Source: Nemertoderma westbladi (Eukaryota; Animalia; Xenacoelomorpha). Taken from it: 64,000 nucleotides of DNA. The stretch is taken from NCBI GenBank assembly GCA_032718475.1, contig JAUCBJ010001674.1:21368-85367 (forward strand). Direction: 5' to 3'. Position numbers and translations under genes: made by a program. Shown in pieces: positions 29,198 to 55,866 of this stretch. The notes under the pieces were generated by a model that worked only from the letters and a program-made list of their open reading frames with translations, was not told the DNA's origin and searched no databases. Position 1 is the first letter of the stretch; every line of letters begins with the position of its first letter.

Positions 29198-29234
29198 AAT
29201 AATAATAATAATAATAATACACAATTTCTTATTA

Positions 29235-29285: not shown

Positions 29286-31484
29286 TCAGTTGAAGGCCCT
29301 ATTATATAAACATGTTTTGAGTTGAGATTTGAATGATTCTAAATTTGTGCAAGTTCTTAAGCTAAGGGGGAGACTGTTGAAAATAACTGGGGCAGCATGT
29401 TTAAATGCACGGGAACCGACCGTCTTTAAGTTGTATCTTGGGACCGATAAAGTCCACAGTTGTTGGGTTCTAGTTGGGTTGTAGTTTGGAGTCAACAGTT
29501 CTAAAATGTAAGACGGGGCGAGACCATTAAGCGCCTTCCACGTCATGAGTGCAATCTTGTACTCGATACGGAAGGTGACCGGCAACCAGTGAAGAGTTCG
29601 TAATGTAGGAGTGATGTGAGACCGAACAGGTTGACCGGAAATAAGGCGGGCGCAGCTATTAAGTGCGAGTTGTAGTCTGTTGAGGGACACAGTTGGTAGA
29701 TTATACAGAAGACTGTTGTTTTGATCGATACGTGATATTATTAGAGCATTGACAAGCTTCTTCAGATTATCAGAAGACAAGTGTTCTTTTATTCGACGTA
29801 TGTTCCTGAGGTGAAAGTTAATAGATGCTGTGAGAGTTTTAATGTGATCATGCATATTTAGCTGACTATCGAAGCGAACTCCAAGGGTTGTTACGGTGGA
29901 TAGGGATTGAATTATCTTGCCGCCTAGAGAGACTGAGAATTCTGATGCAAAGCTCAAGAAATCATTGCCGCGTCCAAGTAGTAGGATGTCTGTCTTGTCA
30001 TCATTCAAGAACAGGTGAAGTTCATCGAGTTGCACTTTGATGGCTTGGATGCAATTTGCTATCGAAGCTTTTAGTGCCAATGAGTCAAGGCAGTCGAAAA
30101 TTATGAAGATCTGGTTGTCGTCAGCGTAGATGTGGTAGCCGACTTCAAGATGATCGCATGCTGTAGCAATGGGCAGACAGTATAGATAAGGTACAGGATT
30201 GCTCCAAGGACTGAGCCCTGGGGAACTCCACTCAAAAGGTTTACAACACGAGAAAGTTTCCCATTTATTGAAACTACGAATGATCTATCTGATAGGTATG
30301 ACTTAAACCACTGATAGACAGTCCCGTCAATGCCGATATTACGAAGTGTGTCTAGTAATATGTTGTAATCGACAAGGTCGAAAGCAGCCGATTGATCTAA
30401 GAGAATGAGAGCTGCGAATTTACCACTATCAATAGTTTCGAGTAAGTCACTTTGTAATCTGCACAATAGTGTTTCAACAGAGTGATATTTACGATAACCG
30501 GAGACAAACTTTGGAATAATATTATTCTTATCTAGGTAGTCAATCAGTTGGAGAGCAGCGTGTTTTTCAATGATCTTAGAAAGGAAAGATAAGTTTGAAA
30601 CTGGTCTGTAGTTTTTCTTGTTTTGATGGTCGAGTTTAGCTTTCTTTAGTAGTGGACGGAGAATCGCTTGTTTACCATTGGATGGGAATTCACCGCGTTC
30701 AAGAGAAGTTGATGTTATTTTATGAACAATCGGAATCCATTGCTCTGGGACCTTTTTTAGGATTTCAGTTGGGATAGGATCGGAGGAACACGTTGTAGGT
30801 TTCATGTTACTAATAATCTGTTTGGTCTCCTGTGCCGTCGGGATAGTGAATTTTTCCCACTTCGAGTTAAAATCACTAGACGGATGATCTGGTACGGTGG
30901 GTGTTGCAGGTGCTGAGTCACGGAATTTATTTACCTTTTCCTCAAAGAAATCGGCAAATTCATTGGCTAACATAGAATCATCCTCTGAATCTGGGAGACG
31001 CGGGGAGTTGGTTGAGAGAGATTTGACAAAGCTGAACAGTTCACTAGTGGAGTTCGTTGACAATTTCGAAGAGTAGAATTCTGAAGATATCTCTCCACAT
31101 CTGGTATAATATTCTTTGCAACTATTTCTGTATACAGTTCGGTTCTCGCTGGTGCGATGTTTCCTGAAACGCCGCTCAAGTTTGCGCTTTTTATTCCGGA
31201 GTAGTTTCAACTCAGCAGTAAACCAAGGGGTAGAGGGTCTAGGTTTGAAAACGGTAGATTTTTCAGGAGAAATAATAGAGGCGATATTAGTTAGATGATC
31301 ATTGTATTCACTACAAAGTTCAGTGACAGTTAAACTGGGATCAAATGTAACATCCAGCATATCACGTAGAAGATCTAAGTTACATTTCTTCCAGGATCGA
31401 TGCAACACTTTCGTTGACGGCTTTGTAGTATGGGACACCGGGCGCCGTAGGATATTCAAAGTGAAAGAGACAGGGTAATGGTCT
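29286..31484 (-). pseudogene. LINE ORF2, 3' part (end of endonuclease, RT, C-terminal domain) with one frameshift near 30177
   Basis: NYRPVSNLSFLSKIIEK, LLDQSAAFDLVD and GVPQGSVLG motifs. After the frameshift the alternative frame reads LPIATACDHLEVGYHIYADDNQIF (YADD) and continues into the 29286..30080 ORF. Confidence 0.92.
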
Positions 31485-32676
31485 TGTTCGCGCTTTCAGA
31501 CCTTTGGCAGTTTAACCCGCCAAATTAGAATGTCTTCTAGATAATAAATCGCTTTTTAGCCTATGACAAGTATTTGATTCACTACACTAGTCGAAACCAA
31601 TCTGTGCGCGATCATTCACCCGCTGGATATTCCCGGGAGATTGGGTTCGACGGTTTAATTTTATTGCTATGTAAGCCTAATGTATTATTCGACTGACAGT
31701 ATTATATAATCTCTGACAATATTATTCACCTTCGGTAATATTAACAGTTCCTTTAGGACGTGGCGCTTTATCTATATAAACAGAGTTATGACTTAAACTA
31801 CTCACAACGATATGGCTTAATTATAATTCACATATATGGCGCATTCTTTAGGAATGCTTCTTTAACAGACTCACTCATACACAATGCTGCACAATACTGC
31901 ACACTAATCTGCCGATCTTCACTGATTTTAGTCACATATAAAAGGAACACAGACTGACTCATGTAGGGTCTATCAAATAACATTAGATTCACTTCAAACC
32001 ACTTTAACATAAGTCACAATCGTTTATCTGTAACCTTTCTCTCTTACCTTCGGTATATCAAGAATATTGGGTGTCGGGGTTATTTCTCGTTATTCCAATA
32101 TAATAATTCATCAACAAATATAATGAATAACCGACAACAAATAGCAGTATGCAGTATTCACAAAGCCAGTTATTAAAGGCCGTGACTACGGTGTGTCAAA
32201 TGCGAGTTAAATGCGAGGTGCAGTTAAAGGATATATGTCCTTATAATTAAACCTACTAGTGTTGCGCTAAAAAGCAGAAAACATAAAACACTAAAAAGCC
32301 GTTCTTTCGTGGCTTTGAAAAACTCGTGACTACTGCTCTATACGAGGATACCAACTCCCTTATTCCACGAAGCTCCCGTTCAACACAGAGAAAGAGCAGT
32401 GAGATAGGAAATTTTCAGTTCAGCAGCTCTGTGATAGGTCAAAATCAAGGCTAACTCAAATTCTATTGGGAGATACAAAAACAAGGCTATGACGCAACCT
32501 CCCTAGGCTTGTTGGCCGATTAAACAGAGCCCAGATGCCTGCGTACAGCAAATCAGCCAATAAGCTGGTAACTTGCACTATTTTTAACTATAGATCACTT
32601 TGAGAGTATTCTTAGCGACTGGGGGGGAACTGGCCAACAAGGCAAACGAATCAGTTATCCCACAAAAGCTTTTACA
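31485..32676 (-). repeat. 3' LTR (1192 bp)
   Basis: TGTTCGCG...TTTTACA on the plus strand; direct repeat of 44087-45278. I saw a single mismatch by eye (31651 C vs 44253 T). Confidence 0.96.
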
Positions 32677-32685
32677 CCGCTCCCA
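32677..32685 (-). promoter_or_regulatory. Putative polypurine tract (TGGGAGCGG) abutting the 3' LTR
   Basis: Short G-rich tract directly upstream of the 3' LTR on the element strand. Confidence 0.55.
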
Positions 32686-34108
32686 GAAAATGGGATTTAA
32701 GTCTATAAAATATAACAAATCACAGTTTCTAAAATATAAAAATACTCTAAACAGTTAGTCTTTCTTGCGCGGACGGCGTTTACGCAGTTTCTTGAGGCTA
32801 GCAAGAGTCCTTTTCTCTTTGGGGGGAAGCCACTTTACTAGGAGGGCCATAACTCCTGGGTGAAGGGTGCAATATGATTGCATCAGAAGGTGTAGGATTA
32901 TGGTCGAGGTATCTGCCGTTTCGATATGCTTCTCCTCGAGCTGATTTTCCTCCGCTCGTAGCTGGATACGTTCATCCAAAAACTCTCGCAGAGAATAGGA
33001 TCGTCCAAGTTCGATAACTTCTTAGAGATTCTGGATTTCCCAATCGAATTGAGATAAGGCCAATTCGTTTATCGATTGGACTTACTGTTATAACTTACGT
33101 TTATATGAACAAACGCAGGTTTCTTTTTTGATCTTTATAGAATAGCGTTTAACTCGTTTCGTACAACGCTCTCCTTCACCTTGATGAGGGGTTGTATCGC
33201 GTTAAACGGGAACGACCATACGGTTGGATAGTGATATTAGGTGTCCGCGTCACAATCCGGCTAGGTAAGATGGGCGGCTAGCTAGAAATCACTGTCGGAG
33301 TGTTACCGATTAATTGTTAGGGTAGCACTAGATCTTTGAACAGTGAATACAGTCCGCGAGGTTCCGCGACACCACCAGGATCGCAGGTCTGAGGTCCAAC
33401 TAAGGAATGAGGAGGTTTGACCGAGTATTCCGGGACTCTGATCGTAGGTTTACTCCAGGATCGTTCGAGCCGAGTGAGCATAGGTGATACGTCAACAAGT
33501 TTCGGTTTACGTGGATGTTTATGTCTTTCCGTTTATTAGTTGAGTCTAGGGCATTTATCGTAATAATACCAAAGACGCACGTCTGGTAGGGTAAACGCGG
33601 GTGATATTTATTTGTTGTTACAATGCTTCTATCAAGAATTCCAAATATACGTTGGAGTTACCGCGTCCATTTGTTTCTTTAGTGTCTTTTCTTTCGAGTC
33701 AATTTCGAATATAATTTTCGCATTCGAATTTCAGTTTATGGTTCCGACTCCGCTGGGCAGGATATATAGTCGACATAGTCTGTATTGTGTAAATCGATAG
33801 GATGACCAGTAGTTAAGAAGCCCATATACGTACCATTACGCCGCGTATATCGAGCAGCGAATTTTCTATAGTCCAACTCGCGCGAGCTGCTCTTGGGACA
33901 TTGGCGGTTCGATATAACGACCATCGTCCTCCGCAGCAGTTGGACTAACGTCGCCGCGTATTAAGCTATCAACAAACGCTTGTAAAAGTAGAGTATATCG
34001 CTCCCCGATACCAAGACCATCTTCTATCAACTCCGTCATATCTGCTATATATGAGTTTATCCATATTATAATGAGTCCACATTTAGGCGAGCGGGCGTCG
34101 CTGCCTAC

Positions 34109-35448
34109 TAGTGTTGAGAACTGAATCAATTTTGACTAATTTCAGTTACAGTTACAGTTTCAGTATTCAAAGTTTTGCATTTCAGTTACAGTTTCAGTAT
34201 TCAAAGTTTTGCATTTCAGTTACAGTTACAGTTTCAGTATTACAATGTGTAACATTTCAGTTACAGTTACAGTTTCAGTATTACAAAATTGAGCATTTCA
34301 GTTTCAGTTACAGTTTCAGTTATAGATTCAATATATATGATCTCACGTAGTAAGCAGTCATCTGAAACTAAAAATGAGGCACTTTAATATATTACTGTTA
34401 TATACGCTAATAATAATGTTCATTACGAAACGTCCTCTTTGTAGAGCTAATAGGTAGTTGTTGTAGGAAAGTTGGACCCACTCTATGGTAATATTTTGTA
34501 ACTAATATACTGATAGTATGTAATGAAAGTGGCACGTCACAAGACCACACTAAAGGCACCCACATTTTACTGTACATCTTGTTTCAGTGCTTGTACACTT
34601 ATTGTTATCATTTATTGTTTTGGTTATAAAGCCATGCTTCTGAATCCTGCTCATTTTCCTTAATTCGTAATTTGTTTTAGTAATCATATATTTATTGTTT
34701 TGGTTAGACCCACCTCGATAAGCTGCTCCTTTCACTTTTAAGTTTAATTTTGTAATTTATAATGGTAAACTTGATCAAAATTTAATTTCCAGTGTGCCTC
34801 TAGTGTGATTGTGATATTAATAGTACCGGGTAACATTAATAATTCATAATGTAAAATATATATCCGTTATTATCCCTCTACCATTAGGCCTAACTTTTCT
34901 TTGTTTATCTAAAACATTTACATTTAATATGAAGCAAAAGTGGTGATAAGGCTGATAATAGTCTAATAGTTGAGTCCGATGAACATAGACTATATGCTAG
35001 ATCTTCGTTCACTACTTGACTCTCCAAATAAATCACATTTGAGCTAAGTGGGCAATGGGTCTTTGATTTTATATTGTGTAATATTATGGTTTTGTTCAGA
35101 AGTGGGAAAAACGAGATTGTTTTTTCTTTATAACAATGTTTTAAAAATGATACCTATGGTAACCACTGTTATTCATTTATTAAACTATACTCTATACGTT
35201 ATTACAATGCTGTTTTAAATGCTTATTCATGTTAATTGTGTGATTGAGAACTGAATCGGATTTTGTTAATTTCAGTTTCAGTTTCAGTTACAGTATTCAA
35301 AATTCGTAATTACAGTTTCAGTTACAGTTACAGTATTCAAAGTTCGCAATTACAGTTACAGTTATAGTTACAGTATCAAAAAAATCATCAAAACCATTCA
35401 GTTACAGTTGCAGTTACAGTATAATTACAGTTACAGTTCTCAACACTA
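34109..35448. mobile_element. hAT-type non-autonomous DNA transposon (1340 bp) inside the LTR element; 8-bp TSD CTGCCTAC
   Basis: TIR TAGTGTTGAGAACTG...CAGTTCTCAACACTA; TSD at 34101-34108 and 35449-35456; subterminal CAGTTA/CAGTTT hexamer arrays at both ends. Confidence 0.92.
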
Positions 35449-37173: not shown

Positions 37174-40100
37174 TCACTGCATCCTGAATACAATTCCAGG
37201 TTTCCTCTTCGTCCTGGAATAGTGACGATAGAAACATTGCTCAAAGTATATGACGGCGTCACAAAGCCGATTCCAGGAGCTATAGTGGTCCGTCGCTCTC
37301 TGCAGGAGAGGTGAGAGTCCCTGCGAGACGTCTGATGTTCCAGAGCTCCAATCGCTCTCTCTGATCTTCATGAAGGATCCACTCGCGGTGGGGAGGTCCA
37401 GATCCACGGCGTCGTCCCTGGCAATATGTACTACCGACAGATCTATCCCGGGTTCAAATAACTCCGCTCCACCCGTCCGGGTTTTAGGTTTAACTTTCTC
37501 CGCTCCCTTGGCTGGTCTAATCTCAGTCGGAGTAAGATGGGGAGGCCATTCATCCTCCTTACTCAGGAAGTCGGGTTCACCTAACCGGTCTGTAGTATCT
37601 GTCAGTTCTTGAGGAGTTGCTCCTCTGGAAGCGATGTCAGTTGTATTCATCGTCTTGGGGCAATATCTCCATTGATCTACATTGGAGTTAAGATTGTCAT
37701 TATCTGAGGAGTGTGGTGTTCCCTCAGTTGGGTCGTCTCCCTCACTATTATCATCTTCCCATTCACTTACCTGGCAGACGCGATCTTGAAGCAGTCTTTC
37801 CCTGAGCGTTCTACGGGAAGGTCCAGTAAGGTACCAACCTACTCTAGTTCTTACCGCATAGGTCTGTAGTGGCTGCGGTTGAGCAGGCCGTTTCTCTAAT
37901 GTCTCCAGCGCCTCATGCGCGTTTTGGCCGATGAGTATTTGCACTCCAGGATAATCAGTCTGGAATCGAGGTATGTTAAGATGTTGGATGCTCTCATCCT
38001 CGTCCCAATTATAAAGGTCTGCTTGTGTAGTAGCGAAGTTCTTTATAGCCACCATTTTCACTGACCTGATGCTATGTTCTCCTAGTTCGTCCTGGGGGGT
38101 GGACAACTCACCTATATAATAGTCGGCAGCTACAGTAGAATTCCAAACCTGCATGATCCCTGACATGTTTAGCTTGGTTCGGAACTTGGGTTGTCCAGCA
38201 AAGATGACTTCGGCTAGTTCTTTATCGATGAATGTTCCTGTGCTACCGGAGTCCAGGAGGGCGTTCACTATATAGCTCTTCTGAGGTCCGTGGACCCGTA
38301 ACTGGACTACAGGAAATTCTCGGATTCCTATATTGGAAGTTGGCGCTTTCCAAGATGGTTGTTGATCGGAAGTAGTTAAGGTAAGGTCGCTGTCTGTGTC
38401 TTTCTCATACACAAATGCTCGATACACTGCGGTGGTGTTTATTAGGTAACAGGATTCGTTTTGGTCGGAGAACTCGTCCGTATAGAATCCTTCCATCTCA
38501 GATTGATCAGTGTCGTTCACATCACTGAATTGGACATGTAGTTCGGACTCACTTACCTGACTCGGGCTGTTTCGTTCGAATTCCGTGTGCAACAAGATAT
38601 GATGTTTTGCGCCGCACTTTGCACACCTTGCGTCGGAGTTACAGGTTCGCCGTTGGTGTCCTCGTCTGAGGCAATTATAACACAACCGCTTATCCCACAT
38701 GACTTCACGTCTATCCTTTAGTGATTTCCTCAGGAATTTATCACACGCATTTAAACGGTGGGGCCCGTCGCACAGCACACATTTGGGCTTGATGTTACTT
38801 ACTTTAACATGTGCTGTGTGGTGCACACTTGTTCTTTCCTCGGGCTTTCTCACCTGAATTCTTTTAGGAGACGTAGGAGGGGTTTTTTGTACCGGTTCCC
38901 TTCTGTCATTGGGTCGAGACTTGGATTTACTTACCTGATCTTTAGGCATTTTATTGACATAAGATCTGTCAGTGTCTTTCCCGCTGTCCTCTCCTTGAGA
39001 AGTTTGGCTTTCACCGTCGTCGGTATAACATACTGGTGTTACCCTTCTCCTAGAAACGGGTTTCTCACTTACCTTACTTTCCGCTGTCTTCTCTCTGGAC
39101 TGCTTTATGAGCTGTAATTTCACCTCGCTATCCAGGAATGACATGAGATCAGCCATGGTAGGGTCTCGTTGTTGTTGTTCCATCATATATAACACCTTCT
39201 TGTCCCAGCGTGTACCTACTCCACCCTTGGGCAAAGTAGATGCTAAGGCTCCTACAACCATAGAATTCTGGTATTCATGAGACTTACCTAACCAATCTAG
39301 TTGTCTACAGATCTCCTGAATCTCATCGGAAAACTCTATAATCCCGCTGCTAAGAAACTTTCGGGGCGCCATTAATTTCGCATATAAATACCTAGCTATG
39401 TTAGTCCTATTACCATACCTGATGTTTAGTGTATCCCAAACTTGTCTTAATCCGTCTGGATGTCCAATAAACTTTAACGCCATTAACTTGGGAGATCCTT
39501 CCAAGCACTCGATGAGGTATCTAAGTTTTTCTCCATTAGATAGTACAGAGTTCTGTATGTTATCTTTGTAATATTCATTAAAAGGTAACCATTTCATCTC
39601 ATCTCCATTGAACTTGACGATCTCTCCAACCTTTACCGCTTGCCGGGCTTCGGTTCTAGCCATTTGACGCGTAAAACTTTCTTGGGCCATCGTGCTATTT
39701 AATATCGAGTTATCGGTATATAAATTTCTAGGATTATGATCCGGTCTATAGGGAATATCACTATCAACAGGTCTATAATTACCCTTAATAGGGTTCACTA
39801 TAGGAGTTTCTACTTCGCTAGCAGTATAGATGCGTGTAGGCTCCACACCTTGCGCATGAGATACTTCAGACCTAACGGGTTGACACATTGTTACAGAGGG
39901 TGGTGGTATACCTCTTTGAGTATTTACTAATTTATCGCGCTCTAGCGCGATACTTTGCTGCACTTCTTGCAACTCTAGTCTACTTTCCCTTACTGTGCCC
40001 TTGAATTGCTGGACAGTCTCCTGCATCTGCCCGAGCAGGATATCCATCCCCCGCCGTCTCTCGTCCACCCATTCGACCGCCGAAGCGGGAGTCGCCAACG

Positions 40101-41997
40101 TTGTAGCGGGCGGATGAGGGACAACGGGCGACAAATTATGAATATTTCGCTCGGGGTCCAGGACCTGAACTGTCTCTGGGGCAGTTCTACGGGGCACAGG
40201 TAGCTTAGTGCTATGCAGAGGGAATTTAGAAGTAGTTTCAGGGAGCACAAGTGTATCTATCACCGAAGGGGTGATTTCAAGAACAGGCCTAATTATTTCA
40301 GGCTCATCTACTATAGTAGGGAGTCTTTCTATTTTAATTATTTGGTCTGTGGGCTCTGTACTACCTAAGTTGGTGTTATTTAGTTGCCTTCTAACAGCTG
40401 GAGGCAAATCAGGCAATTTCTGACGGTGGAATGTTCTTTTACGTCTGCTTAGACGAGATCTATTTCCTTTGCCTTCAGTATCGGTGGTATCGCCTTCCTC
40501 AGATGATGTATATCCCTGTCTTTTGGGAGTAGATCGATTCATCATCTGCATATTGCTAGCCGTTAACTGTTTATTTATGCAGTCTTGATTCTCTTGAATG
40601 TTTTCCAATTCTAATTGGTTGGTTTCTTCGGCCGCTTTTGCCTCTGCCGCTGCCGCTTTTGCCTCTGCCGCTGCCTCTGCCGCTGCCGCCTTTCTTTCAG
40701 CTTCGGCCGCCTTTGCCTCTGCCGCTGCCGCTTTTGCCTCGGCCGCTGCCTCTGCCGCTGCCGCTTTTCTTTCAGCTTCGGCTACTTTCCTTTCCGCTTC
40801 GGCAGCTGCTACTGCTGCTTTCTTTCTGTCTTCTATACGTTTTTTCTTGACTTGTTCTTCTTGGACTCGTGTGATGCGGAGTTGTTCATCAAATTTAGCC
40901 TGGTTCGCAGCCCTCATTTCCACATCGATGGCATCCAACACAAGCTTGGTTCCTTCACTATTAGGGCTAAGTCCCTCTAACCTTCTCCTCAACTCGTCAT
41001 CACCTAAAAAACGTTGATAGTCTGACAGATAGATGTCAATGGCATCCCTCTTATGCGGTTTCTCTGCCGTCGCTTCACTTTCCACTTGGGAAAAAGTAGC
41101 GTCTGTTGATTCTCCATGGGTTGAGCGCTCCTCTAGCTGAGCTTTCCACTGAGCTGTTCCTTGAACCTGGAGACTCACCCTTTGAAACCAAGTCTTTACG
41201 GCAACTTGCAACGACGTGTCTTGCCTTCGTTTTGAAGCCTCCTCAAAGGCCGATAATATTAGCCTGATCCGCAAAACTCTTTCTCTAACTTGATAAAGCA
41301 GCGATCCCTGCTCTTGAGGTCCTTGAGGTTGTTGAAAAAGTTGCTTTTCTACTCGCTCCATAGAGCTGAAGAATCCCTGTGCGTATCCGGCTGCGGACCT
41401 CTTCCACACAGCTGGATCGATGGTTTCCTTGGCTACTCCCATCCGGTGTATGTCTTCCCAGGCAGCTTCTGATAAATCAAACGGGAGTCCGGGTCCGGGG
41501 AAGTTCCATTGCGACTCGACAATAGACTTCAGTTCTTCACTCGTGTATCCCGCGTAACTATCTCTAGTTGACCGTCGACTTCTCGCCCAATCGATCTGGT
41601 GTTCTTCCACCGCGATCAATAACCCAGCGAGCACGGCTGCAGGAAGGATGAGAAGGGGATCCGTATAAACCGCATCCGTCATCTCTGCTCCGCGCTCGGG
41701 TGTCAGCTCTACAGTATCCTCACTACTGGAGCTGCTGGGCCGCTGAGGAATAGGTTCTTGACTAGCGGGTTGTTGCTGTTCCGCTGCTTGTTGGTCCCGC
41801 TTGACCTGAGCTCGGGTGCCTATGATAGACCTACGATGTTGGACTAGCCTAGGTTCTGTTATTACTACTGGAGGGATGACCTTCCTCACAGTGGGAGGTG
41901 AACTGAACTTACGACCAGACGGTTGTACGTCTCGATCTGAGTTGCAGATGGTTACATCTAATAAACTGTCTGACAGGTTCTGCTTAGTATCAGACAT
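37174..41997 (-). CDS. BEL/Pao Gag-protease polyprotein (1607 aa) with RT, most of RNase H and integrase deleted
   Basis: DUF1759-like Gag core (KFNGDEMKWLPF..LSNGEKLRYLIECLEG); zinc knuckles (CVLCDGPH..C, CYNCLRRGH..C, CAKCGAKHHILLH); aspartic protease (ALLDSGS, ILIG, AVRTRVGWYLTGP). The protein then jumps to the RNase H tail (QWRYCP..N..DIASRG..EDEWP..YSSWNRL). Confidence 0.93.
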   Translation of the reverse strand: MSDTKQNLSDSLLDVTICNSDRDVQPSGRKFSSPPTVRKVIPPVVITEPRLVQHRRSIIGTRAQVKRDQQAAEQQQPASQEPIPQRPSSSSSEDTVELTPERGAEMTDAVYTDPLLILPAAVLAGLLIAVEEHQIDWARSRRSTRDSYAGYTSEELKSIVESQWNFPGPGLPFDLSEAAWEDIHRMGVAKETIDPAVWKRSAAGYAQGFFSSMERVEKQLFQQPQGPQEQGSLLYQVRERVLRIRLILSAFEEASKRRQDTSLQVAVKTWFQRVSLQVQGTAQWKAQLEERSTHGESTDATFSQVESEATAEKPHKRDAIDIYLSDYQRFLGDDELRRRLEGLSPNSEGTKLVLDAIDVEMRAANQAKFDEQLRITRVQEEQVKKKRIEDRKKAAVAAAEAERKVAEAERKAAAAEAAAEAKAAAAEAKAAEAERKAAAAEAAAEAKAAAAEAKAAEETNQLELENIQENQDCINKQLTASNMQMMNRSTPKRQGYTSSEEGDTTDTEGKGNRSRLSRRKRTFHRQKLPDLPPAVRRQLNNTNLGSTEPTDQIIKIERLPTIVDEPEIIRPVLEITPSVIDTLVLPETTSKFPLHSTKLPVPRRTAPETVQVLDPERNIHNLSPVVPHPPATTLATPASAVEWVDERRRGMDILLGQMQETVQQFKGTVRESRLELQEVQQSIALERDKLVNTQRGIPPPSVTMCQPVRSEVSHAQGVEPTRIYTASEVETPIVNPIKGNYRPVDSDIPYRPDHNPRNLYTDNSILNSTMAQESFTRQMARTEARQAVKVGEIVKFNGDEMKWLPFNEYYKDNIQNSVLSNGEKLRYLIECLEGSPKLMALKFIGHPDGLRQVWDTLNIRYGNRTNIARYLYAKLMAPRKFLSSGIIEFSDEIQEICRQLDWLGKSHEYQNSMVVGALASTLPKGGVGTRWDKKVLYMMEQQQRDPTMADLMSFLDSEVKLQLIKQSREKTAESKVSEKPVSRRRVTPVCYTDDGESQTSQGEDSGKDTDRSYVNKMPKDQVSKSKSRPNDRREPVQKTPPTSPKRIQVRKPEERTSVHHTAHVKVSNIKPKCVLCDGPHRLNACDKFLRKSLKDRREVMWDKRLCYNCLRRGHQRRTCNSDARCAKCGAKHHILLHTEFERNSPSQVSESELHVQFSDVNDTDQSEMEGFYTDEFSDQNESCYLINTTAVYRAFVYEKDTDSDLTLTTSDQQPSWKAPTSNIGIREFPVVQLRVHGPQKSYIVNALLDSGSTGTFIDKELAEVIFAGQPKFRTKLNMSGIMQVWNSTVAADYYIGELSTPQDELGEHSIRSVKMVAIKNFATTQADLYNWDEDESIQHLNIPRFQTDYPGVQILIGQNAHEALETLEKRPAQPQPLQTYAVRTRVGWYLTGPSRRTLRERLLQDRVCQVSEWEDDNSEGDDPTEGTPHSSDNDNLNSNVDQWRYCPKTMNTTDIASRGATPQELTDTTDRLGEPDFLSKEDEWPPHLTPTEIRPAKGAEKVKPKTRTGGAELFEPGIDLSVVHIARDDAVDLDLPTASGSFMKIRESDWSSGTSDVSQGLSPLLQRATDHYSSWNRLCDAVIYFEQCFYRHYSRTKRKPGIVFRMQ

Positions 41998-43250
41998 GAC
42001 TAGGTATGTACAGTTGAATGCCTACTGCTATATTACAGTCTAAGCAAGTCTAGTAACTCAGTATTAACTGCTAGCCTAGTAATTAATTACCGTTACTGCT
42101 ACTCAGTGTAGCGTGATATATAATATATTATAATAGAATACCGGTATGCTTATAGTATATATAAGTATTATTACAGACTAGGTTTATCTCAGAATACCGG
42201 TATAATTTTAGCACAAATATATATAAATATATAATAGGCCTATCGGGAATACCGGTATATCAATTATTTTAAAATAACTGAATTTCTGAATTTCAAGGGT
42301 TACTTGGTTACTTTACTTACTTTATTACCGTTATTTGAGCAGTAATCCAACTGATATTGAGACCTAATGGTTGTATGGTAGGCCTACGATTTATAAATCG
42401 TTAGATTTGATTTATAATATATATATACCCGTTTAATGGGTTTTGTCAATGTTGAAATAAATGTTATTATTTCTGGGGTAATCACTACACAAAGCGGTAC
42501 GCTTTCAGTGAAGTGTTACTTATAGGACACTAAAACAAATAATTCTAATTTACCTAAGTTACTTAATACTACAAATTACGTACAATTCGGGTGAGATTAC
42601 AATCTCTAAATAAACACAAAAATTTACAAAAACACAAAATACGAAATTTTTTAGGGTATTTTTACAAGAAGTCTACAAACCAGCCTAACAAAGGGTTAGA
42701 AAACCGGTTATTACAACGGACAGGGTACTACGGTATTTGAAATAATAAGTAGTAGTAAATACACTGCGTTGTCTAGATAGGAAAATACCACCGCCTGACG
42801 ACCTATAGCCGTATCGCTATAGGTTCTACGTTATGTATCACGGAGTGTTCCTACCTAGAAGTTAATAGAGCTAATCGAATGTGCCTATCAACCACTTTAC
42901 AACACAGATATAATGCCTACACTAATTACTTCGGAAAGCACTGTACACTAAACCCTAAATTAGGTACGAGTACTTGTATAACATATAATCTGTAGTTAAA
43001 TATACTTGAACAGCTAAAAGAACCACGGCATCTGCTGGAGTGACCGATGCACAAAATCACCAGTCTTTACCTACGCCGAGCAGCCCGTGTAGTACCGGGG
43101 TTAATTTAACTATAGCGGTATGTATAACAAACACAATTACTGTATGAACAAACTTGGGGAATGAATGTTGCGGATAATCGCATAAACTCTGAATAATAAA
43201 TATTACGCTACGCGTACAAACCACTCAAACAAAATACAGACCGAACACTG

Positions 43251-43730
43251 ACAGACTACTATCAAGCCTAAACAAACTACGGTATATGCAGACTCCGAAA
43301 TGATTAGGGAGTATGCGCTCTAACCCAGTAGTGCGACTTATTCTTTAGTTGGGGGTTTACCTTACAGCGTTCGCTGCCCCTACTGCCTAACCGTACTTAA
43401 TCGGACAGATGATCTACACACGCGGCAATCCGTTCAGACCTAATAACAGCCAGACAACTATCCAGCCTACAAATTATCTAAGTAAAATTATACGCTACCC
43501 GTACAGACTTACACAAACAAAGTACAGACTAAACGATGGCAGACTACTCTCAAGCCTAAATAAACCGCAGGACATGCAGACTCCGAAATGATTAGGGAGT
43601 ATGCGCTCTAACCCAGTAGTGCGACTTATTCTTTAGTTGGGGGTTTACCTTACAGCGTTCGCTGCCCCTACTTCCTAACCGTACTTAATCGGACAGGTGA
43701 TCTACACACACTGCAATTCGTTCGGACTTA
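43251..43730. repeat. Direct duplication (period 288 bp) in the 5' leader of the LTR element
   Basis: GACTCCGAAATGATTAGGGAGTATGCGCTC...ATCGGACAG occurs at 43291 and 43579 with high identity. Confidence 0.85.
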
Positions 43731-44074
43731 ACAGCAATCAGACAACAGCTCAGCCTACAAATCGTCTGTACAATCTGATCAGGCTTACACGCCTTCTGTT
43801 CAATACTGGCCTACAAATAAATAAAACTTGACAGAAATAAGTAAAAATCTCAATAAAAAACCAGGGCTGCAGTCCCTGATTAATTATTAAGACCTACCGG
43901 TATACAACTATCAAAATCGAATAATACTGCTGTACCTGTACTGCTGTAGGTACCGGTCCGGGTGGTTAGGTAGTCAGGCCTACTGGTACCGGTTCTGGCA
44001 GTTGGGCCTACTGACCTACAGATGTACCGGTTGACCAGTACTTTCAACTTTATTGCTTACTGCAATAAAGAAGC

Positions 44075-44086
44075 TATATCCTTTAA
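44075..44086 (-). promoter_or_regulatory. PBS-position sequence TTAAAGGATATA (not TGG-starting), complementary to LTR positions 44826-44837
   Basis: Directly abuts the 5' LTR and is a perfect 12-bp inverted repeat with a site inside the LTR. Confidence 0.6.
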
Positions 44087-45278
44087 TGTTCGCGCTTTCA
44101 GACCTTTGGCAGTTTAACCCGCCAAATTAGAATGTCTTCTAGATAATAAATCGCTTTTTAGCCTATGACAAGTATTTGATTCACTACACTAGTCGAAACC
44201 AATCTGTGCGCGATCATTCACCCGCTGGATATTCCCGGGAGATTGGGTTCGATGGTTTAATTTTATTGCTATGTAAGCCTAATGTATTATTCGACTGACA
44301 GTATTATATAATCTCTGACAATATTATTCACCTTCGGTAATATTAACAGTTCCTTTAGGACGTGGCGCTTTATCTATATAAACAGAGTTATGACTTAAAC
44401 TACTCACAACGATATGGCTTAATTATAATTCACATATATGGCGCATTCTTTAGGAATGCTTCTTTAACAGACTCACTCATACACAATGCTGCACAATACT
44501 GCACACTAATCTGCCGATCTTCACTGATTTTAGTCACATATAAAAGGAACACAGACTGACTCATGTAGGGTCTATCAAATAACATTAGATTCACTTCAAA
44601 CCACTTTAACATAAGTCACAATCGTTTATCTGTAACCTTTCTCTCTTACCTTCGGTATATCAAGAATATTGGGTGTCGGGGTTATTTCTCGTTATTCCAA
44701 TATAATAATTCATCAACAAATATAATGAATAACCGACAACAAATAGCAGTATGCAGTATTCACAAAGCCAGTTATTAAAGGCCGTGACTACGGTGTGTCA
44801 AATGCGAGTTAAATGCGAGGTGCAGTTAAAGGATATATGTCCTTATAATTAAACCTACTAGTGTTGCGCTAAAAAGCAGAAAACATAAAACACTAAAAAG
44901 CCGTTCTTTCGTGGCTTTGAAAAACTCGTGACTACTGCTCTATACGAGGATACCAACTCCCTTATTCCACGAAGCTCCCGTTCAACACAGAGAAAGAGCA
45001 GTGAGATAGGAAATTTTCAGTTCAGCAGCTCTGTGATAGGTCAAAATCAAGGCTAACTCAAATTCTATTGGGAGATACAAAAACAAGGCTATGACGCAAC
45101 CTCCCTAGGCTTGTTGGCCGATTAAACAGAGCCCAGATGCCTGCGTACAGCAAATCAGCCAATAAGCTGGTAACTTGCACTATTTTTAACTATAGATCAC
45201 TTTGAGAGTATTCTTAGCGACTGGGGGGGAACTGGCCAACAAGGCAAACGAATCAGTTATCCCACAAAAGCTTTTACA
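44087..45278 (-). repeat. 5' LTR (1192 bp)
   Basis: Direct repeat of 31485-32676; candidate polyadenylation signal AATAAA on the minus strand at 44262-44267. Confidence 0.96.
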
Positions 45279-45975
45279 GGTCTGGATATAACGGATTGTT
45301 ATCATCCACGTTTATAGACTCTATATCTATCATATCGATGGTACTGGTATGTGTAATAATAACATCGAGGAGATGGCCAGATCGGTGCGTGGGGGAGTTG
45401 ACCAATTGTTTCAGACAAAGGGATTCTAACAAATCTCTGAAGCGGTTGGTTGCATTCGAATTCTCATCGAGGTGAATATTTAGGTCGCCGACTACAATTG
45501 TATCTACAGTTGAATCGGTAAATAACGCAGAAAGAAAATAATTAAATTCATCTAGGAAGCAATTATATAGTTCGCCGCTGACTAGTGGAGAAGGACGATA
45601 TACTACAACAAATCTAATTGGACCGACTGTTGTTTTGATATTAATAGCAATGTTCTCGAACGACGTATAATTTTCATTAAAATTAAGAGAGGATAAACAG
45701 CCTTTTAGTTCCTTGCGGTGGAGTATCCCAACCCCACCTCCTCTAGTTAATCGTGGTTTATGGTCTAAGTTGTGAGTATTTGGGGTGAGCTGAGTAGTTA
45801 CACTGTTGCAAAAATCGTGTACAGTAAGCCAAGTTTCAGCAATTCCTAGAATATCAAAGTTATTATCCTCGACGAATAAACGAGTCTGAGATGTCTTGTT
45901 AACTATTGACCATGGATTAATATAGCATAACTTAAGAGAGTCACTACAGTTATCATTGGAAGCGTTACCCTCAAG
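45279..45975 (-). pseudogene. LINE ORF2, 5' part: APE-type endonuclease domain (open frame)
   Basis: Manual translation: LKLCYINPWSIVNK..DILGIAETWL..RGGGVGIL..VVVYRPS..IVVGDLNIH..PTHRSGHLLDVII..PD|HYPV. It continues in frame at 31479 once the LTR element and one TSD are removed. Confidence 0.92.
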
Positions 45976-46784: not shown

Positions 46785-47252
46785 TTATCGTTTCCCTGAG
46801 ACTTTTGAGTTCTTTGAACGGGTCCGTTTTCTTCCCCTAGACTTTGATTGCGCACACAGACAGTTACTTATTTCTACCTTGCTGGTCCCTGATAAAGTTT
46901 CCCTTATCCCGGCTTCCGGACTATCACTTTCACGCCGATACGCTTTGGGTGTGCAGTAACCTGTACTTAGTGCAACCATCCATTTGTAGACTTGATTGAA
47001 GTGCCTTTTCGAGAGATGCGGTCCGCAAACTCTATACATAAATCCCGCAAACTGTGTGTAATCCCCCTTGAGGTCCAAGTAGCGTTTTATGAGCTGATTC
47101 GTCTTTGTTATTCCCTTCCTTTCCATCCGCTGGCAGAAAATCGGACCAATACCAGGTACCTTGATGAGTTTGGTTTTGTAAATCTTTGACATCCCTGTTG
47201 CTCCATAATCCAACTCCTTTTTCGTGGATTTGGTTCGCTTTGTTCTACCCAT
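46785..47252 (-). CDS. Divergent BAF (barrier-to-autointegration factor)-like protein with basic N- and C-terminal tails, copy 1 (155 aa, intronless)
   Basis: KLIKVPGIGPIFCQRMERKGITKTNQLIKRYLDLKGDYTQFAGFMYRVCG aligns without gaps to BAF [51 protein letters not shown] (HhH GIG, KG, YL.LK.D..F..CG); ATG in an AAAATGG context. Confidence 0.75.
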   Translation of the reverse strand: MGRTKRTKSTKKELDYGATGMSKIYKTKLIKVPGIGPIFCQRMERKGITKTNQLIKRYLDLKGDYTQFAGFMYRVCGPHLSKRHFNQVYKWMVALSTGYCTPKAYRRESDSPEAGIRETLSGTSKVEISNCLCAQSKSRGRKRTRSKNSKVSGKR

Positions 47253-48478
47253 TTTGAATTGAAAGATTTGAGTTTATGAAATGAATTTGAACTGGTTATA
47301 TCCCATGAGATGCTACGATTTTGATGTTACTTACACTGCTAGACTAACTACAACCGCATAAGTGAACTAAATCTACCTACATTTTCCGTATATTCCAGAA
47401 TATTACAGCTAGAGCTACCACGGATACACTTTAAAATAAAAGTAAATATTCAAGATGAAAGCCAAAAAAACATTAGAATTATATATTGTTGAGGGTTTTC
47501 CTGAAAGTAACCAAATTCTACTCCGGACCGACTTTAAATGCAAATGCAATACGACTTTCGGTGCCACGATGTTGTGTTCCAGATGGTCGATTCTCGTAGA
47601 GAATTTTTCGGGCTATCTAGTGGTATATAACACTAATCTTCTATCGTTTTCCATTTTGGAATAATTTTACGAAAACTAAAGGGTAATCGCTCATAATTTG
47701 TTCAAAACGAGTTCAGAGTTCAAAACGACACCAGACATCCATTCATATTTCTGTCTCTCTGTCTGTCAAACATTAAGATAGAATACAGGCTAACTAAAAT
47801 TCTCGCTATAGAGGTTTTTTGTGTTCGTGATTTCAATTAAGATGTTAGTTTTAACAATTCATGGAATCTATACAGCCGGTCCGTCTGTCTATCTGTCCGT
47901 CTTTTTGTCAGACTGTCCGTCTAACATTAAGAAAACATACTATCTAACTAAAATTCTCGCTATGGGGGTTTCTCGGGTTTGTGATTTCATTTCTGATGTC
48001 AGTTTTCACATTTCACGAAATCTAGACTGTCTGTCCGCCTGTCTGACTGTCCGTCATTTTGCCAATCAGTCGGTCATTAGATATTTGCGAACAAAGGATT
48101 GCGTCTACGTGGTTTAAATTTTAATTTTCGGATTCCTCGTAAAAGTTTGAGTCAGAAATTGTCGAACTAGCCCATAGGGTGTTGCAAGAATAAAAATAAA
48201 CATATCATAAAACCTTAAATGCGTTTTTCTCTGGACGCCTTTTTTTGATACTATACGTTTCTACTTGACACGCCACATATTTTGGTTTCGGTGACTCGCA
48301 ACTAGAAGCACCGATTTTTCAACACCAAAACAAAGAAATGGTCCCCTAATCCAATCTTTACCGAAATAAAAAACAAACCCTCTAAAAATCAATTTCCCCA
48401 AATTAAATGCATATTCCCCCAAACTATATACACACTTAAAACCAAATATAACGTTAGAATTTATTAAATGGCATTTAA

Positions 48479-49494: not shown

Positions 49495-49962
49495 TTATCG
49501 TTTCCCTGAGACTTTTGAGTTCTTTGAACGGGTCCGTTTTCTTCCCCTAGAGTTTGATTGCGCACACAGACAGTTACTTATTTCTACCTTGCTGGTCCCT
49601 GATAAAGTTTCCCTTATCCCGGCTTCCGGACTATCACTTTCACGCCGATACGCTTTGGGTGTGCAGTAACCTGTACTTAGTGCAACCATCCATTTGTAGA
49701 CTTGATTGAAGTGCCTTTTCGAGAGATGCGGTCCGCAAACTCTATACATAAATCCCGCAAACTGTGTGTAATCCCCCTTGAGGTCCAAGTAGCGTTTTAT
49801 GAGCTGATTCGTCTTTGTTATTCCCTTCCTTTCCATCCGCTGGCAGAAAATCGGACCAATACCAGGTACCTTGATGAGTTTGGTTTTGTAAATCTTTGAC
49901 ATCCCTGTTGCTCCATAATCCAACTCCTTTTTCGTGGATTTGGTTCGCTTTGTTCTACCCAT
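49495..49962 (-). CDS. BAF-like protein, copy 2 (155 aa; one K>N change vs copy 1)
   Basis: Same evidence as copy 1. Confidence 0.75.
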   Translation of the reverse strand: MGRTKRTKSTKKELDYGATGMSKIYKTKLIKVPGIGPIFCQRMERKGITKTNQLIKRYLDLKGDYTQFAGFMYRVCGPHLSKRHFNQVYKWMVALSTGYCTPKAYRRESDSPEAGIRETLSGTSKVEISNCLCAQSNSRGRKRTRSKNSKVSGKR

Positions 49963-51698
49963 TTTGAATTGAACGATTTGAGTTTATGAAATGAATTTGA
50001 ACTGGTTATATCCCATGAGATGCTACGATTTTGATGTTACTTACACTGCTAGACTAACTACAACCGCATAAGTGAACTAAATCTACCTACATTTTCCGTA
50101 TATTCCAGAATATTACAGCTAGAGCTACCACGGATACACTTTAAAATAAAATAAATATTCAAGATGAAAGCCAAAAAAACATTAGAATTATATATTGTTG
50201 AGGGTTTTCCTGAAAGTAACGAAATTCTACTCCGGACCGACTTTAAATGCAAATGCAATACGATTTTCGGTCCCACGAGGTTGTGTTCCAGATGGTCGAT
50301 TCTCGTAGAGAATTTTTCGGGCTATCTAGTGGTATATAACACTAATCTTCTATCGTTTTCCATTTTGGAATAATTTTACGAAAACTAAAGGGTAATCGCT
50401 CATAATTTGTTCAAAACGAGTTCAGAGTTCAAAACGACACCAGACATCCATTCATATTTCTGTCTCTCTGTCTGTCAAACATTAAGAAAGAATACAGGCT
50501 AACTAAAATTCTCGCTATAGAGGTTTTTTGTGTTCGTGATTTCAATTAAGATGTTAGTTTTAACAATTCATGGAATCTATACAGCCTGTCCGTCTGTCTA
50601 TCTGTCCGTCTTTTTGTCAGACTGTCCGTCTAACATTAAGAAAACATACTATCTAACTAAAATTCTCGCTTTGGGGGTTTCTCGGGTTTGTGATTTCATT
50701 TCTGATGTCAGTTTTCACATTTCACGAAATCTAGACTGTCTGTCCGCCTGTCTGACTGTCCGTCATTTTGCCAATCCGTCGGTCATTAGATATTTGCGAA
50801 CAAAGGATTGCGTCTACGTGGTTTAAATTTTAATTTTCGGATTCCTCGTAAAAGTTTGAGTCAGAAATTGTCGAACTAGCCCATAGGGTGTTGCAAGAAT
50901 AAAAATAAACATATCATAAAACCTTAAATGCGTTTTTCTCTGGACGCCTTTTTTTGATACTATACGTTTCTACTTGACACGCCACATATTTTGGTTTCGG
51001 TGACTCGCAACTAGAAGCTCCGATTTTTCAACACCAAAACACAGAAATGGTCCCCTAATCCAATCTTTACCGAAATAAAAAACAAACCCTCTAAAAATCA
51101 ATTTCCCCAAATTAAATGCATATTCCCCCAAACTATATACACACTTAAAACCAAATATAACGTTAGAATTTATTAAATGGTTTTTAAACAAAACGCAAAT
51201 TCATCCGGCTCTGTGAAAAGACTGTGAACAACTTCAAGGCGTGGGATAAAGTGCCTCAATGAATTTTTAATGTAATACATAATCTAATCCACTCTGGTCT
51301 ATAGTCACTAGTCAGCCTTAGTAACCCGGCCCAACAACCAACTGCAATCAATAGGTTAACGTAATATGTTGGTCAATAGAAACCAGTGCATTGACTCTCT
51401 TTTTGAGACGCAAATTCAAATAATTCTAATGTTTTTCACTTAATTCTAGAATATTAATTACGCGTAATAATGAAGAAACAATATAAGAATTTTAAACGAT
51501 CAGCTAAGTGTATTACTGAAGTGTAATACAGTAATGTATACAATTTGTCACTACATACATCTAATCTAATCTGCTGTATGTCTAAATATTGTTATAAAGA
51601 TAATTATTAATAGTTTTGATTTGAGTTGATTTGATTTGCTTTTCTACGTCTATCTGTTTGGTTTCCTTTACATCAGTTCGACTTTGAATAGTTAAGTT

Positions 51699-52166
51699 TT
51701 ATCGTTTCCCTGAGAATTTTGAGTTCTTTGAACGGGTCCGTTTTCTTCCCGTAGACTTTGATTGCGCACACAGACAGTTACTTATTTCTACCTTGCTGGT
51801 CCCTGATAAAGTTTCCCTTATCCCGGTTTCAGGACTATCACTTTCACGCCGATACGCTTTGGGTGTGCAGTAACCTGTACTTAGTGCAACCATCCATTTG
51901 TAGACTTGATTGAAGTGCCTTTTCGAGAGATGCGGTCCGCAAACTCTATACATAAATCCCGCAAACTGTGTGTAATCCCCCTTGAGGTCCAAGTAGCGTT
52001 TTATGAGCTGATTCGTCTTTGTTATTCCCTTCCTTTCCATCCGCTGGCAGAAAATCGGACCAACACCAGGTACCTTGATGAGTTTGGTTTTGTAAATCTT
52101 TGACATCCCTGTTGCTCCATAATCCAACTCCTTTTTCGTGGATTTGGTTCGCTTTGTTCTACCCAT
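51699..52166 (-). CDS. BAF-like protein, copy 3 (155 aa; I>V, A>T, R>T, V>F vs copy 1)
   Basis: Same evidence as copy 1. Confidence 0.75.
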   Translation of the reverse strand: MGRTKRTKSTKKELDYGATGMSKIYKTKLIKVPGVGPIFCQRMERKGITKTNQLIKRYLDLKGDYTQFAGFMYRVCGPHLSKRHFNQVYKWMVALSTGYCTPKAYRRESDSPETGIRETLSGTSKVEISNCLCAQSKSTGRKRTRSKNSKFSGKR

Positions 52167-52699
52167 TTTGAATTGAAAGATTTGAGTTTATGAAATGAAT
52201 TTGAACTGATTATATCCCATGAGATGCTACGATTTTGATGTTACTTACACTACTAGACTAACTACAACCGCATAAGTGAACTAAATCTACCTACATTTTC
52301 CGTATATTCCAGAATATTACAGCTAGAGCTACCACGGATACACTTTAAAATAAAAATAAATATTCAAGATGAAAGCCAAAAAAACATTAGAATTATATAT
52401 TGTTGAGGGTTTTCCTGAAAGTAACGAAATTCTACTCCGGATCGACTTTAAATGCAAATGCAATACGATTTTTGGTCCCACAAGGTTGTGTTCCAGAACT
52501 CAATATTATTTCAATGGGAGCAGCCCCGGTTTCAAGTATAAATGAAGTTTTGTACAGTTAAATTAATTTTAAAAATTTATATATATTTAATTAATTTCAC
52601 CAAATACTGTAGGTATTTGATACTTAATTGTTAAAAATGCAAAAGATTATATTATGACTTATTAAAATTGAGTTAAAGGTAAAAATAAAATAAAATCGT

Positions 52700-54830
52700 T
52701 GGATAGGTACGCGCCCATTCGCTGATAAATTTCGTATTTTGAACGCAGTCCGAATTGTGGTATAATGTTGGTTGCAAATTGGCGACAAAGCTGGCAGATG
52801 CAGTCTAGTTAGGGGCGTGGGAGGTAGATGATGTACAAATCTTATGATGGTAGCCATGCACTGAAAACCTAGTGAATATGTGTCTGTTTCGCTGGATTGG
52901 TTCAGTCCATTTCCGGTCCGTAAATGCAATAGAGTTCCAAAAAGCTGTTGGTATTTCCCGTTCTTTAGAATGTACTACTTCATTGTATTTCTGAAATTGC
53001 CGCGTTGCAGTGAGGTTGATTTGTCTGGCAATGTCTCGAATTAAGTAAGGTCTTCTCGCAAATAGCTAGAACCGTTTGATTTGAGTGCATTTGTGGACTC
53101 CAATGACCTTCTTTAGGAAGCTGGATTTGATTTTATCTATTGCAGGTTGTTTGCGGACAGGTGGGGCCAGGTCTCTCGCAGTCTGTATATTATAATTGGC
53201 TGTACTTTTAGACGAAATAACGCCATTGCGGTTCTTAAGGAAAACATTTGTGGTTTTTTGATACAATGAGCAGTAGGGCGGTACGTTTTTTACTTTTTTT
53301 CGATTTCATTGTTCTACCGGTGCACAAAAGTTGCCAAATGGTATAAAATTAAAACAAAAAAAAATTCTCTAAATTTCATCGATATCTTGACGGATCCCAA
53401 GGGGGTTGAAATTTTAAGCCTTCGCGATGCACCACAATGAAATTTATAACAATATAACACATTGATGAAAGATCAATAACGCAAGAAAGAACTTCCTTCA
53501 TGCATCAAATGTCATCAAATGGTTCCAAACTTAGTTAGATACCAAAATTTTAAATTTTGGATCAAGGGAACTAGTGCCACAGGCACATGGCCATAACCTA
53601 CCCTTTGGCACTAGTGACGATTATTCTCAATTTTTGCGATGGCCAACTTTTAGTACTCCTACTGCATTAGTATTATGCTCATTAGAACCACAATTTTTAG
53701 TGGGGGTAGACACCTTCAAAACAAACGTAGAGCGAATAGTTCTTGAGACGTCGCAGAAAATATGAAGTCCGGCACAAGTCTACATTACCGCCATGAAGCG
53801 ATACACTAACAATGATACTTTGAATTATCTTAAGGCATCAAAAATATACACATCACTGCAACAAATTGATTTAGTGTATACTGGCACCTTCAAAATGAAA
53901 GAGTAGTCATTAGTTCACTATAGGTTTTGTACGAAATGTGTGGAATGGGTCAACTCAATCTCAATATCAAGTATCAATAAATTGGTGGACATAGTCTTGA
54001 CATTTTGTAAAATAATTCAAGAACTAATGACTCTACTCTTATTTTGAAGGTGTCTACACCCACTACATCGATCATTTTCTGTGATGTGTCTATTCTTTAT
54101 TCCTTGAGATAATTCAAAATATCATTTTTAGTATATTTGTCCATATCGCATCAAGGCGGTAATGTAGACTTGTGCCGGACTCACATTTTCTGCGATATCT
54201 CAAGAACTATTCGCTCTAGGCTTGTTTTGATGGTCTCTACCCACACTAAATCGGTCATTGCGGTTCTAATGAGCATAATATTAAAGCAGTAGGAGAACTA
54301 AAAGTTGGCCATCGCGAAAATTGAGAATAATCGTCACTTGCGCCAAAGGGTAGGTTCTGGCCATGTGCCTGTGGCACTAGTTCCCTTGATCCAAAAATCA
54401 AAATTTTGGTTTCTAACTAAGTTTGGAACCATTTGATGCATGCAGGAAGTTATTTCTTGAGTCATTGATCTTTCATCAATGTGTTATATACTGTAGTTAT
54501 AAATTTCATTATGGTGCATCGCGATGGCTCAAAATTTCAACTCTCTTGGGATCCGTGAAAATATTGACAAAATTTATAGAAATTTTGTTGCCTTAATTTT
54601 TTACCACTTGCCAACTTTTGTGCACCGGTAGAACAATGAAATCGAAAAAAAAAGTAAAAAACGCACCGCCCTAATGAGCAGCCTTTAGCGCTTTGCAAGT
54701 GGTTTCAGTTAATATGCTTTATAAAGGTCATGGTCAGTGTTGTTTGGAACGTGACACCTAAATATTTACAAGAGTTAGTTATAGCTACTTCCTGACCATT
54801 GTAGACGAACTTATGCGAGAGACACGTAGT
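52700..54830 (-). pseudogene. Degenerate 3' fragment of a second non-LTR retrotransposon (RT thumb and Cys/His C-terminal motif), split by the MITE at 53274-54673
   Basis: Frames pieced across stops and shifts give KFVYNGQEVAITNSCKYLGVTF, AMALFRLKVQPIIIY..W, IDKIKSSFLKKVIGV and TRFSVHGYHHKIC..H.P..DCICQLC. Clade not assigned. Confidence 0.65.
53274..54673. mobile_element. Foldback MITE (1400 bp, about 640-bp inverted arms), hAT-like; 8-bp TSD ATGAGCAG
   Basis: Ends TAGGGCGG...CCGCCCTA; TSD at 53266-53273 and 54674-54681. The arms match as diverged inverted repeats to about 53917 and 54021. Confidence 0.9.
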
Positions 54831-55500: not shown

Positions 55501-55866
55501 AGGCCCCCCTCACACGGAGCAACTTGTTTCTGCAACTTGTTTCTGAAACTTGTTGCTGGACCCCCTCACACACAGAAACATGTTGCTGCAACTTGTTTCC
55601 GAAACTTGTTGCTGGGCCCCCTCACACACAGAAATAAGTTGCGGAAACAAGTTGCAGAAACTTGTTGCTGGGCCCCCTCACACACAGAAACAAGTTTCGG
55701 AAACAAGTTGCAGCAACTTGTTTCTGTGTGTGAGGGGGCCCAGCAACAAGTTTCGGAAACAAGTTGCAGCAACTTGTTTCTGTGTGTGAGGGGGCCCAGC
55801 AACAAGTTTCGGAAACAAGTTGCAGCAACATGTTTCTGTGTGTGAGGGGGTCCAGCAACAAGTTTC
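55501..55866. mobile_element. Palindromic PIF/Harbinger-like MITE body built of 56-bp subunits; left TIR (A)GGCCCCCCTCACACGGAGCAACTTGTTTC
   Basis: Mirror symmetry about position 55706, including shared variants (GACCCC, AAACATG). GGCC...CACAC terminus preceded by TTA. The right TIR sequence is the unit of the adjacent array. Confidence 0.7.

Follow-up and report, generated by a model that had tools for sequence, protein, structure and literature searches.

We analysed a 64,000-nt stretch of Nemertoderma westbladi DNA (GenBank assembly GCA_032718475.1, contig JAUCBJ010001674.1, positions 21,368 to 85,367 of the forward strand; hereafter the window), which carries a BEL/Pao retrotransposon of 13.8 kb, from 45278 to 31485. 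All coordinates are those of the window, and all features of the element lie on the minus strand. Sequence comparison suggests two conclusions: (i) the element quite probably primes reverse transcription with its own RNA rather than with a tRNA, using a primer that is internal and not 5'-terminal; and (ii) a large branch of BEL/Pao has likely abandoned tRNA priming. In this branch the primer would be built by spliceosomal splicing of an intron in the 5' long terminal repeat (LTR), the intron would be kept in the 3' copy and occasionally lost to give contiguous forms, and reverse transcription would be gated by host splicing.

The primer-binding site (PBS) of the element, TTAAAGGATATA on the element strand, occupies 44075..44086, its first base directly following the 5' LTR. 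Its reverse complement, TATATCCTTTAA, stands without any mismatch at 44837-44826 (LTR positions 442-453); the first paired base is the one directly past the terminal CA of the LTR. We refer to this 12-nt segment (44826..44837; second copy at 32235-32224) as the predicted self-primer and to its pairing with the PBS as helix 1; it is contiguous, with no intron split. The site does not begin with TGG, which precludes pairing of a mature tRNA 3' end at the LTR boundary; a PBS for the 3' end of tRNA-Arg or tRNA-Gly is absent. The complement instead matches the published definition of a self-primer, at least 10 bp starting 0-5 bp from the LTR (excerpts of PMC6317226), and the Tf1/sushi trait of an own-RNA complement of about 11 nt at the LTR boundary is likewise present. 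When the LTR was dinucleotide-shuffled 20,000 times, 12 of the shuffles gave a complement of at least 12 nt at offsets 0-3, and a 12-nt LTR complement occurs at only one of about 11,400 internal positions of the element, the PBS itself. These chance tests were run with the LTR start placed 2 nt short, which leaves the match unaffected. An earlier reading of the window from sequence only had described the non-TGG site, its exact 12-nt complement and the flush pairing, and had judged a chance match improbable; our results agree on each point. We found no intron-extended primer for the element, as no GT/GC-AG junction in its LTR gives 9 nt or more. A motif scan did return a possible intron downstream of the primer and not part of it (44295..44649), with a consensus donor at 44649 and a candidate acceptor near 44295. 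Among the contig joints in the LTR, none was an RNA joint for this candidate; the single joint there (44471-44558), from a run whose contigs are only guessed to be RNA, was without intron ends.

Relatives were fetched with an alignment of eight homologues, giving the best 80 of 509 metagenome loci plus 16 genome-bin loci, in 68 clusters; the sample is biased toward the query group and holds one TGG control only. The sixteen genome-bin loci (L081-L096) come from bacterial genome bins and a Wolbachia assembly and are most likely animal DNA carried in. No relatives of the element were found among viral contigs. LTR ends could be defined by repeats in 13 families, 12 with a non-TGG site and one, the insect-type L091, with TGG. 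Together with the studied element these make a set of 14. In 13 of them, 10-15 nt that begin 0-6 nt past the LTR are complementary to a segment of the same LTR. The exception is the TGG control L091, whose own-LTR complement reaches only 5 nt. The complement is contiguous in three of the 14 (the studied element, L035 and L064). In the other ten it extends to at most 9 nt unspliced and to 10-15 nt across the junction of a GTRAG donor and a pyrimidine-rich AG acceptor, which lie 76-388 nt apart; exon 1 supplies 3-9 of the primer bases. Cross-family pairs reached 10 nt or more in 3 of 182 cases, two of which involve the sister families L038 and L061, and shuffled primer sites did so in 2 of 420. 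Several LTR ends required judgement: those of L053 and L061 were trimmed by eye to the nearest CA, L035 ends in TATA and has diverged LTRs, and the L064 end was taken from a contig overlap.

A blind test covered 44 loci from 36 further families, with LTR ends not used. An 11-nt complement of a family's own splice junction was found 0-7 nt after an ACA in 10 of 36 families, compared with 11 of 1260 cross pairs (some between sisters). Of 13 top matches of at least 11 nt, 11 follow ACA, against a background of 0.153 (binomial, 6e-8), and five more loci have contiguous complements of 11-13 nt after ACA. Two PBS positions differ between L015 and L039, and the match is perfect in both. The final table comprises 30 elements from 29 clusters; the primer complement is intron-split in 22 and contiguous in 8 (the studied element and seven others). 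For this table, L092, with a 14-nt junction match that does not follow ACA, was excluded and L056 (match after TATA) was kept; the L088 acceptor was picked by eye, the filter having given another acceptor with 10 nt; and L021 and L080 (contiguous after ACA, complement near the end of the open reading frame) and single matches in L008 and L094 were not counted. We regard an intron-split primer complement in most related families as strongly supported, as a sequence pattern. The sequence-only reading had pointed to complementarity kept among relatives as one check on its proposal, and this is what the comparison returned: own-LTR complements in other letters in 28 other families, in 22 of them spanning a GT-AG intron in the LTR, with none in the TGG control.

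The primers themselves are diverse, with 25 different 10-mers at the 3' ends of 30 primers; the second-last base is A in 29 of 30 and the last base is C or T in 29 of 30. No table site starts with TGG, and in each of the 30 the first paired base lies 0-6 nt from the LTR end. The spacer between the LTR end and the paired PBS is most often 3 or 0 nt, and its length would set the overhang that integrase must trim. In a quick tree of reverse transcriptase (RT), the seven contiguous forms other than the studied element need six changes and are scattered, which fits repeated intron loss.

We used duplex folding to examine the surroundings of helix 1 and found a predicted second helix of 7 bp, with one G-U pair, between a primer-side arm at 44840..44846 and a leader-side arm at 44065..44071. 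It lies 5' of the primer, past a small bulge or loop. The element's own partner outranks 28 of 29 foreign partners, and across the 30-element table own partners average -6.5 versus -4.6 kcal/mol for cross partners (permutation, 2 of 20,000), even though the second helix is missing in some elements (L075, L093). Since bases 5' of the 11-12-mer take part in this helix, an internal primer and a transcript that begins further upstream are likely. Folding thus indicates that the primer probably sits inside the 5' leader and is not the first 11 nt of the RNA as in Tf1. The sequence-only reading had combined self-priming with a Tf1-like transcript start at or near 44837: comparison among families upholds the former, while the second helix 5' of the 12-mer leaves the latter doubtful. 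A strict Tf1-type arrangement, with the transcript starting at or beside 44837 and its first 11-12 nt serving as primer, shares the helix length of 11-12 nt with Tf1 (excerpts of PMC7175516). We nevertheless consider it very unlikely, since the second helix draws on bases that lie 5' of the 11-mer, and since intron-split relatives, with only 3-9 primer bases in exon 1, would then require a first exon only 3-9 nt long.

The leader is structured (z = -3.3), and in a fold of the whole LTR part of the 12-mer pairs with an LTR segment instead of the PBS. Both results would suit a purely structural role for the LTR-PBS pairing, in packaging, dimerisation or translation control, with some other primer in use. 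Such a role without priming seems highly unlikely to us, because pairing begins so close to the LTR end in every table element, where minus-strand synthesis must start, and TGG starts are absent throughout. Two further predictions concern LTR folding. A long stem between 44855-44830 and about 44440-44414 sequesters part of the 12-mer; it might compete with the PBS for these bases and serve as a switch, and a U5 hairpin is predicted near the LTR end (44105..44126, local fold only).

We propose the following route for self-priming. Transcription would start upstream of 44846, and the 5' leader would fold back to form an 11-12-bp helix on the PBS and a 4-7-bp helix past a small bulge or loop. The RNase H of RT, supplied in trans for the studied element, would, as in Tf1, cleave the RNA immediately 3' of helix 1, and the capped 5' piece left by the cut would be the primer. 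RT would extend it through U5 and the remaining R before transfer to the 3' end. Plus-strand synthesis would then copy the primer into the PBS in each cycle, so that the match stays perfect and the exon junction is imprinted. For most relatives, the primer would arise when the host splices the intron out of the 5' LTR. The sequence upstream of the cut, intron included, would be copied from the 3' LTR, and the intron would survive if the 3' copy is unspliced; were that copy also spliced, the intron would be lost and a contiguous form would result, as in the studied element. An unspliced 3' copy could be favoured by weaker splicing far from the cap, or by decay of RNAs spliced past the stop codon.

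A variant of self-priming places the primer in trans: a short, spliced and polyadenylated RNA wholly within an LTR (5', 3' or solo) would anneal to the PBS of unspliced genomic RNA. This would also account for intron retention, and it accords with two features of the relatives, namely that young elements keep the intron in both LTR copies and that most families have, within the LTR, an AATAAA or ATTAAA after the acceptor. On the other hand, a never-spliced template leaves the scattered intron-less forms needing another cause. Sequences do not separate a cis from a trans primer; we think the trans variant possible but unlikely.

The trait of the self-pairing group (L003-L093), an own-LTR complement of at least 10 nt lying 0-7 nt from the LTR end together with a second helix, is present in the element, and its polypurine tract resembles those of the group. 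A primer split by an LTR intron is absent from it, as from 7 of the 29 others, which are contiguous too. The element itself lacks an RT; among its scorable top homologues, the RT sides with the self-pairing group in 28 of 44 and does not in 16. By host range, our guess is that the tested group probably belongs to the Sailor/Suzu side of BEL/Pao.

Several observations weigh against self-priming, in this element or as a rule for the branch. In a Gag-protease tree the element falls on a long branch outside the tested group, it scores alike with both profiles (181 versus 173-190 bits), and none of the homologues found exceeds 37% identity to it. Its primer ends in A, in contrast to the C or T of 29 of the 30 table elements, and lies 739 nt from the LTR end, compared with 44-324 nt in the 17 others measured. 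A weak TATA-like word at 44847-44842 overlaps the second-helix arm; a true TATA box there would make transcription begin near 44820-44810, which is downstream of the 12-mer, and the 12-mer would be unusable in this family. About 20 of the 36 further families yielded no complement; flanks are short or incomplete in many of them, but some may be true exceptions. Finally, about 30% of host copies differ within the PBS: variants at 44086 and 44082 make up roughly 25-45% of summed contig depth (three runs, two samples), and compensating changes at 44826 and 44830 were not seen among the 40 rows listed of 74. Such mirrored changes would lie near the alignment ends, because most copies diverge at 44765-44822; the bin with the 12-mer is widely shared.

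The element's divergence and lack of placement in the tested group, the PBS variants among host copies and the TATA-like word just 5' of the 12-mer would all be compatible with a match that in this family is a relic or chance and with a primer that is an internal host tRNA fragment or other host RNA, comparable to the half-tRNAs that prime in some Ty1/copia lineages (excerpts of PMC6317226). We regard this as improbable, since the match is exact, is flush with the LTR boundary and is accompanied by a second helix, and since 28 other families obey the same rule with 25 different primer ends, a diversity that no small tRNA set would supply. Self-priming by an internal primer remains our preferred reading.

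The element is bounded by two LTRs of 1192 bp, each TG...CA, at 44087..45278 (5') and 31485..32676 (3'), which differ by one mismatch (99.9% identity), and is flanked by the 5-bp target-site duplication AGACC at 45279..45283 and 31480..31484. The insertion is young, and with LTRs so nearly identical the primer site must have worked recently. The polypurine tract GGGAGCGG lies at 32677..32684. A motif scan places an AATAAA match to the polyadenylation signal at 44262..44267, where the sequence-only reading had put one (near 44265). The single open reading frame (37174..42021, 1615 aa) encodes a long Gag with DUF1759 (E 5e-13) and a three-knuckle zinc-finger region, a protease and what is left of the RNase H-integrase linker. 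Every one of the 24 homologues is a BEL/Pao polyprotein, about 20-30% identical in the longer matches, and contains the Pao-type domain PF05380; 23 also contain PF18701. The earlier assignment to BEL/Pao thus stands, on DUF1759, the BEL/Pao-type Gag and protease, and the Pfam content of the homologues. The RT, RNase H and integrase cores are absent from the open reading frame, and the protease-RT-RNase H-integrase order is not found in it; the element is a deletion derivative, a non-autonomous BEL/Pao. It is inserted between the endonuclease part (45274..45975) and the RT part (30101..31495) of a long interspersed nuclear element (LINE), also on the minus strand. Contigs from two DNA runs span the empty site, and the element family is very abundant in both runs.

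Some further features of the element and its surroundings were recorded. Within the 2-kb leader there is a 288-bp tandem duplication (43204-43762), and within Gag a tandem repeat rich in alanine, lysine and glutamate (40626-40782). About 1.35 kb of the 3' non-coding region (34101-35448), with short repeats at both ends, is skipped by some contigs and is likely a nested insertion. The stretch before the 3' LTR (32500-34000) has, in run X5, a depth far above that of the element's other parts and may be common to another abundant family. Adjoining the element on the minus strand are three near-identical matches to barrier-to-autointegration factor (BAF), a host factor of retroviral integration, at 46785-47273, 49495-49983 and 51699-52187, in tandem duplications that are 98-99% identical. 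Elsewhere in the window, satellite arrays of 21, 19, 39 and 24 bp occupy 1-18577, 19241-23845, 25485-29200 and 55857-64000, respectively, and an imperfect palindrome of 1.4 kb lies at 53271-54676.

If our reading is correct, BEL/Pao would be the third superfamily with self-priming, after Ty3/gypsy and Ty1/copia. A splice-made primer would make the start of reverse transcription depend on host RNA processing, and would raise the question of how an LTR retains an intron via an RNA intermediate. Elements of this kind may also be beyond the reach of tRNA-fragment silencing at the PBS. For annotation, the rule locates LTR ends where tRNA-based PBS searches fail, and self-priming predictions are exact to the base. 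In the literature searched, mostly by title and with GyDB, Repbase entries and supplements outside the search, we found no report of self-priming or splice-built primers in BEL/Pao, and a term search of three BEL/Pao papers (PMC554778, PMC6238403, PMC3118150) returned no mention of PBS, tRNA or priming.

The International Committee on Taxonomy of Viruses (ICTV) describes Belpaoviridae as having an 18-nt PBS for tRNA-Arg or tRNA-Gly, with a host tRNA as primer, and BEL/Pao replication is described in the same source as poorly understood (PMC8742986). The studied element resembles the family in its 1.2-kb LTRs, polypurine tract, BEL/Pao-type Gag and protease, and 5-bp target-site duplication, and differs in that the tRNA PBS of the ICTV description is absent from it and from the other 29 table elements. 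Earlier work describes self-priming in Tf1/sushi and predicts it in Tcn1 and TAR (excerpts of PMC6317226, PMC7175516, PMC3601003 and PMC6934838). In Tf1, the RNA's first 11 bases pair with the PBS and RNase H cuts between bases 11 and 12 (excerpts of PMC7175516). Tf1/Tf2 and the wider Tf1/sushi group of Ty3/gypsy are alike to our element, as far as those excerpts go, in lacking a tRNA site and in having an 11-nt own-RNA complement of the PBS beside the LTR end. They belong to another superfamily, however, and the studied element does not have a Ty3/gypsy chromovirus polyprotein. The BEL/Pao primer, moreover, seems to be internal and to have a second helix on its 5' side, and in most BEL/Pao relatives it spans an LTR intron, for which we found no Tf1/sushi counterpart described in the excerpts. 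Tcn1 (Ty3/gypsy) and TAR (Ty1/copia) are similar in that self-priming was predicted from sequence, from an LTR complement of at least 10 bp starting 0-5 bp after the LTR; they differ in being plant lineages of other superfamilies, and the method, as described in the excerpts, takes contiguous complements only (PMC6317226). Penelope-like elements have an unrelated RT and no LTR-PBS system, and the excerpts give no evidence there of a splicing-made primer. Yet they keep introns through retrotransposition, self-priming has been hypothesised for them (excerpts of PMC3846280), and they pose the same puzzle as the BEL/Pao families described here, an intron that survives an RNA intermediate.
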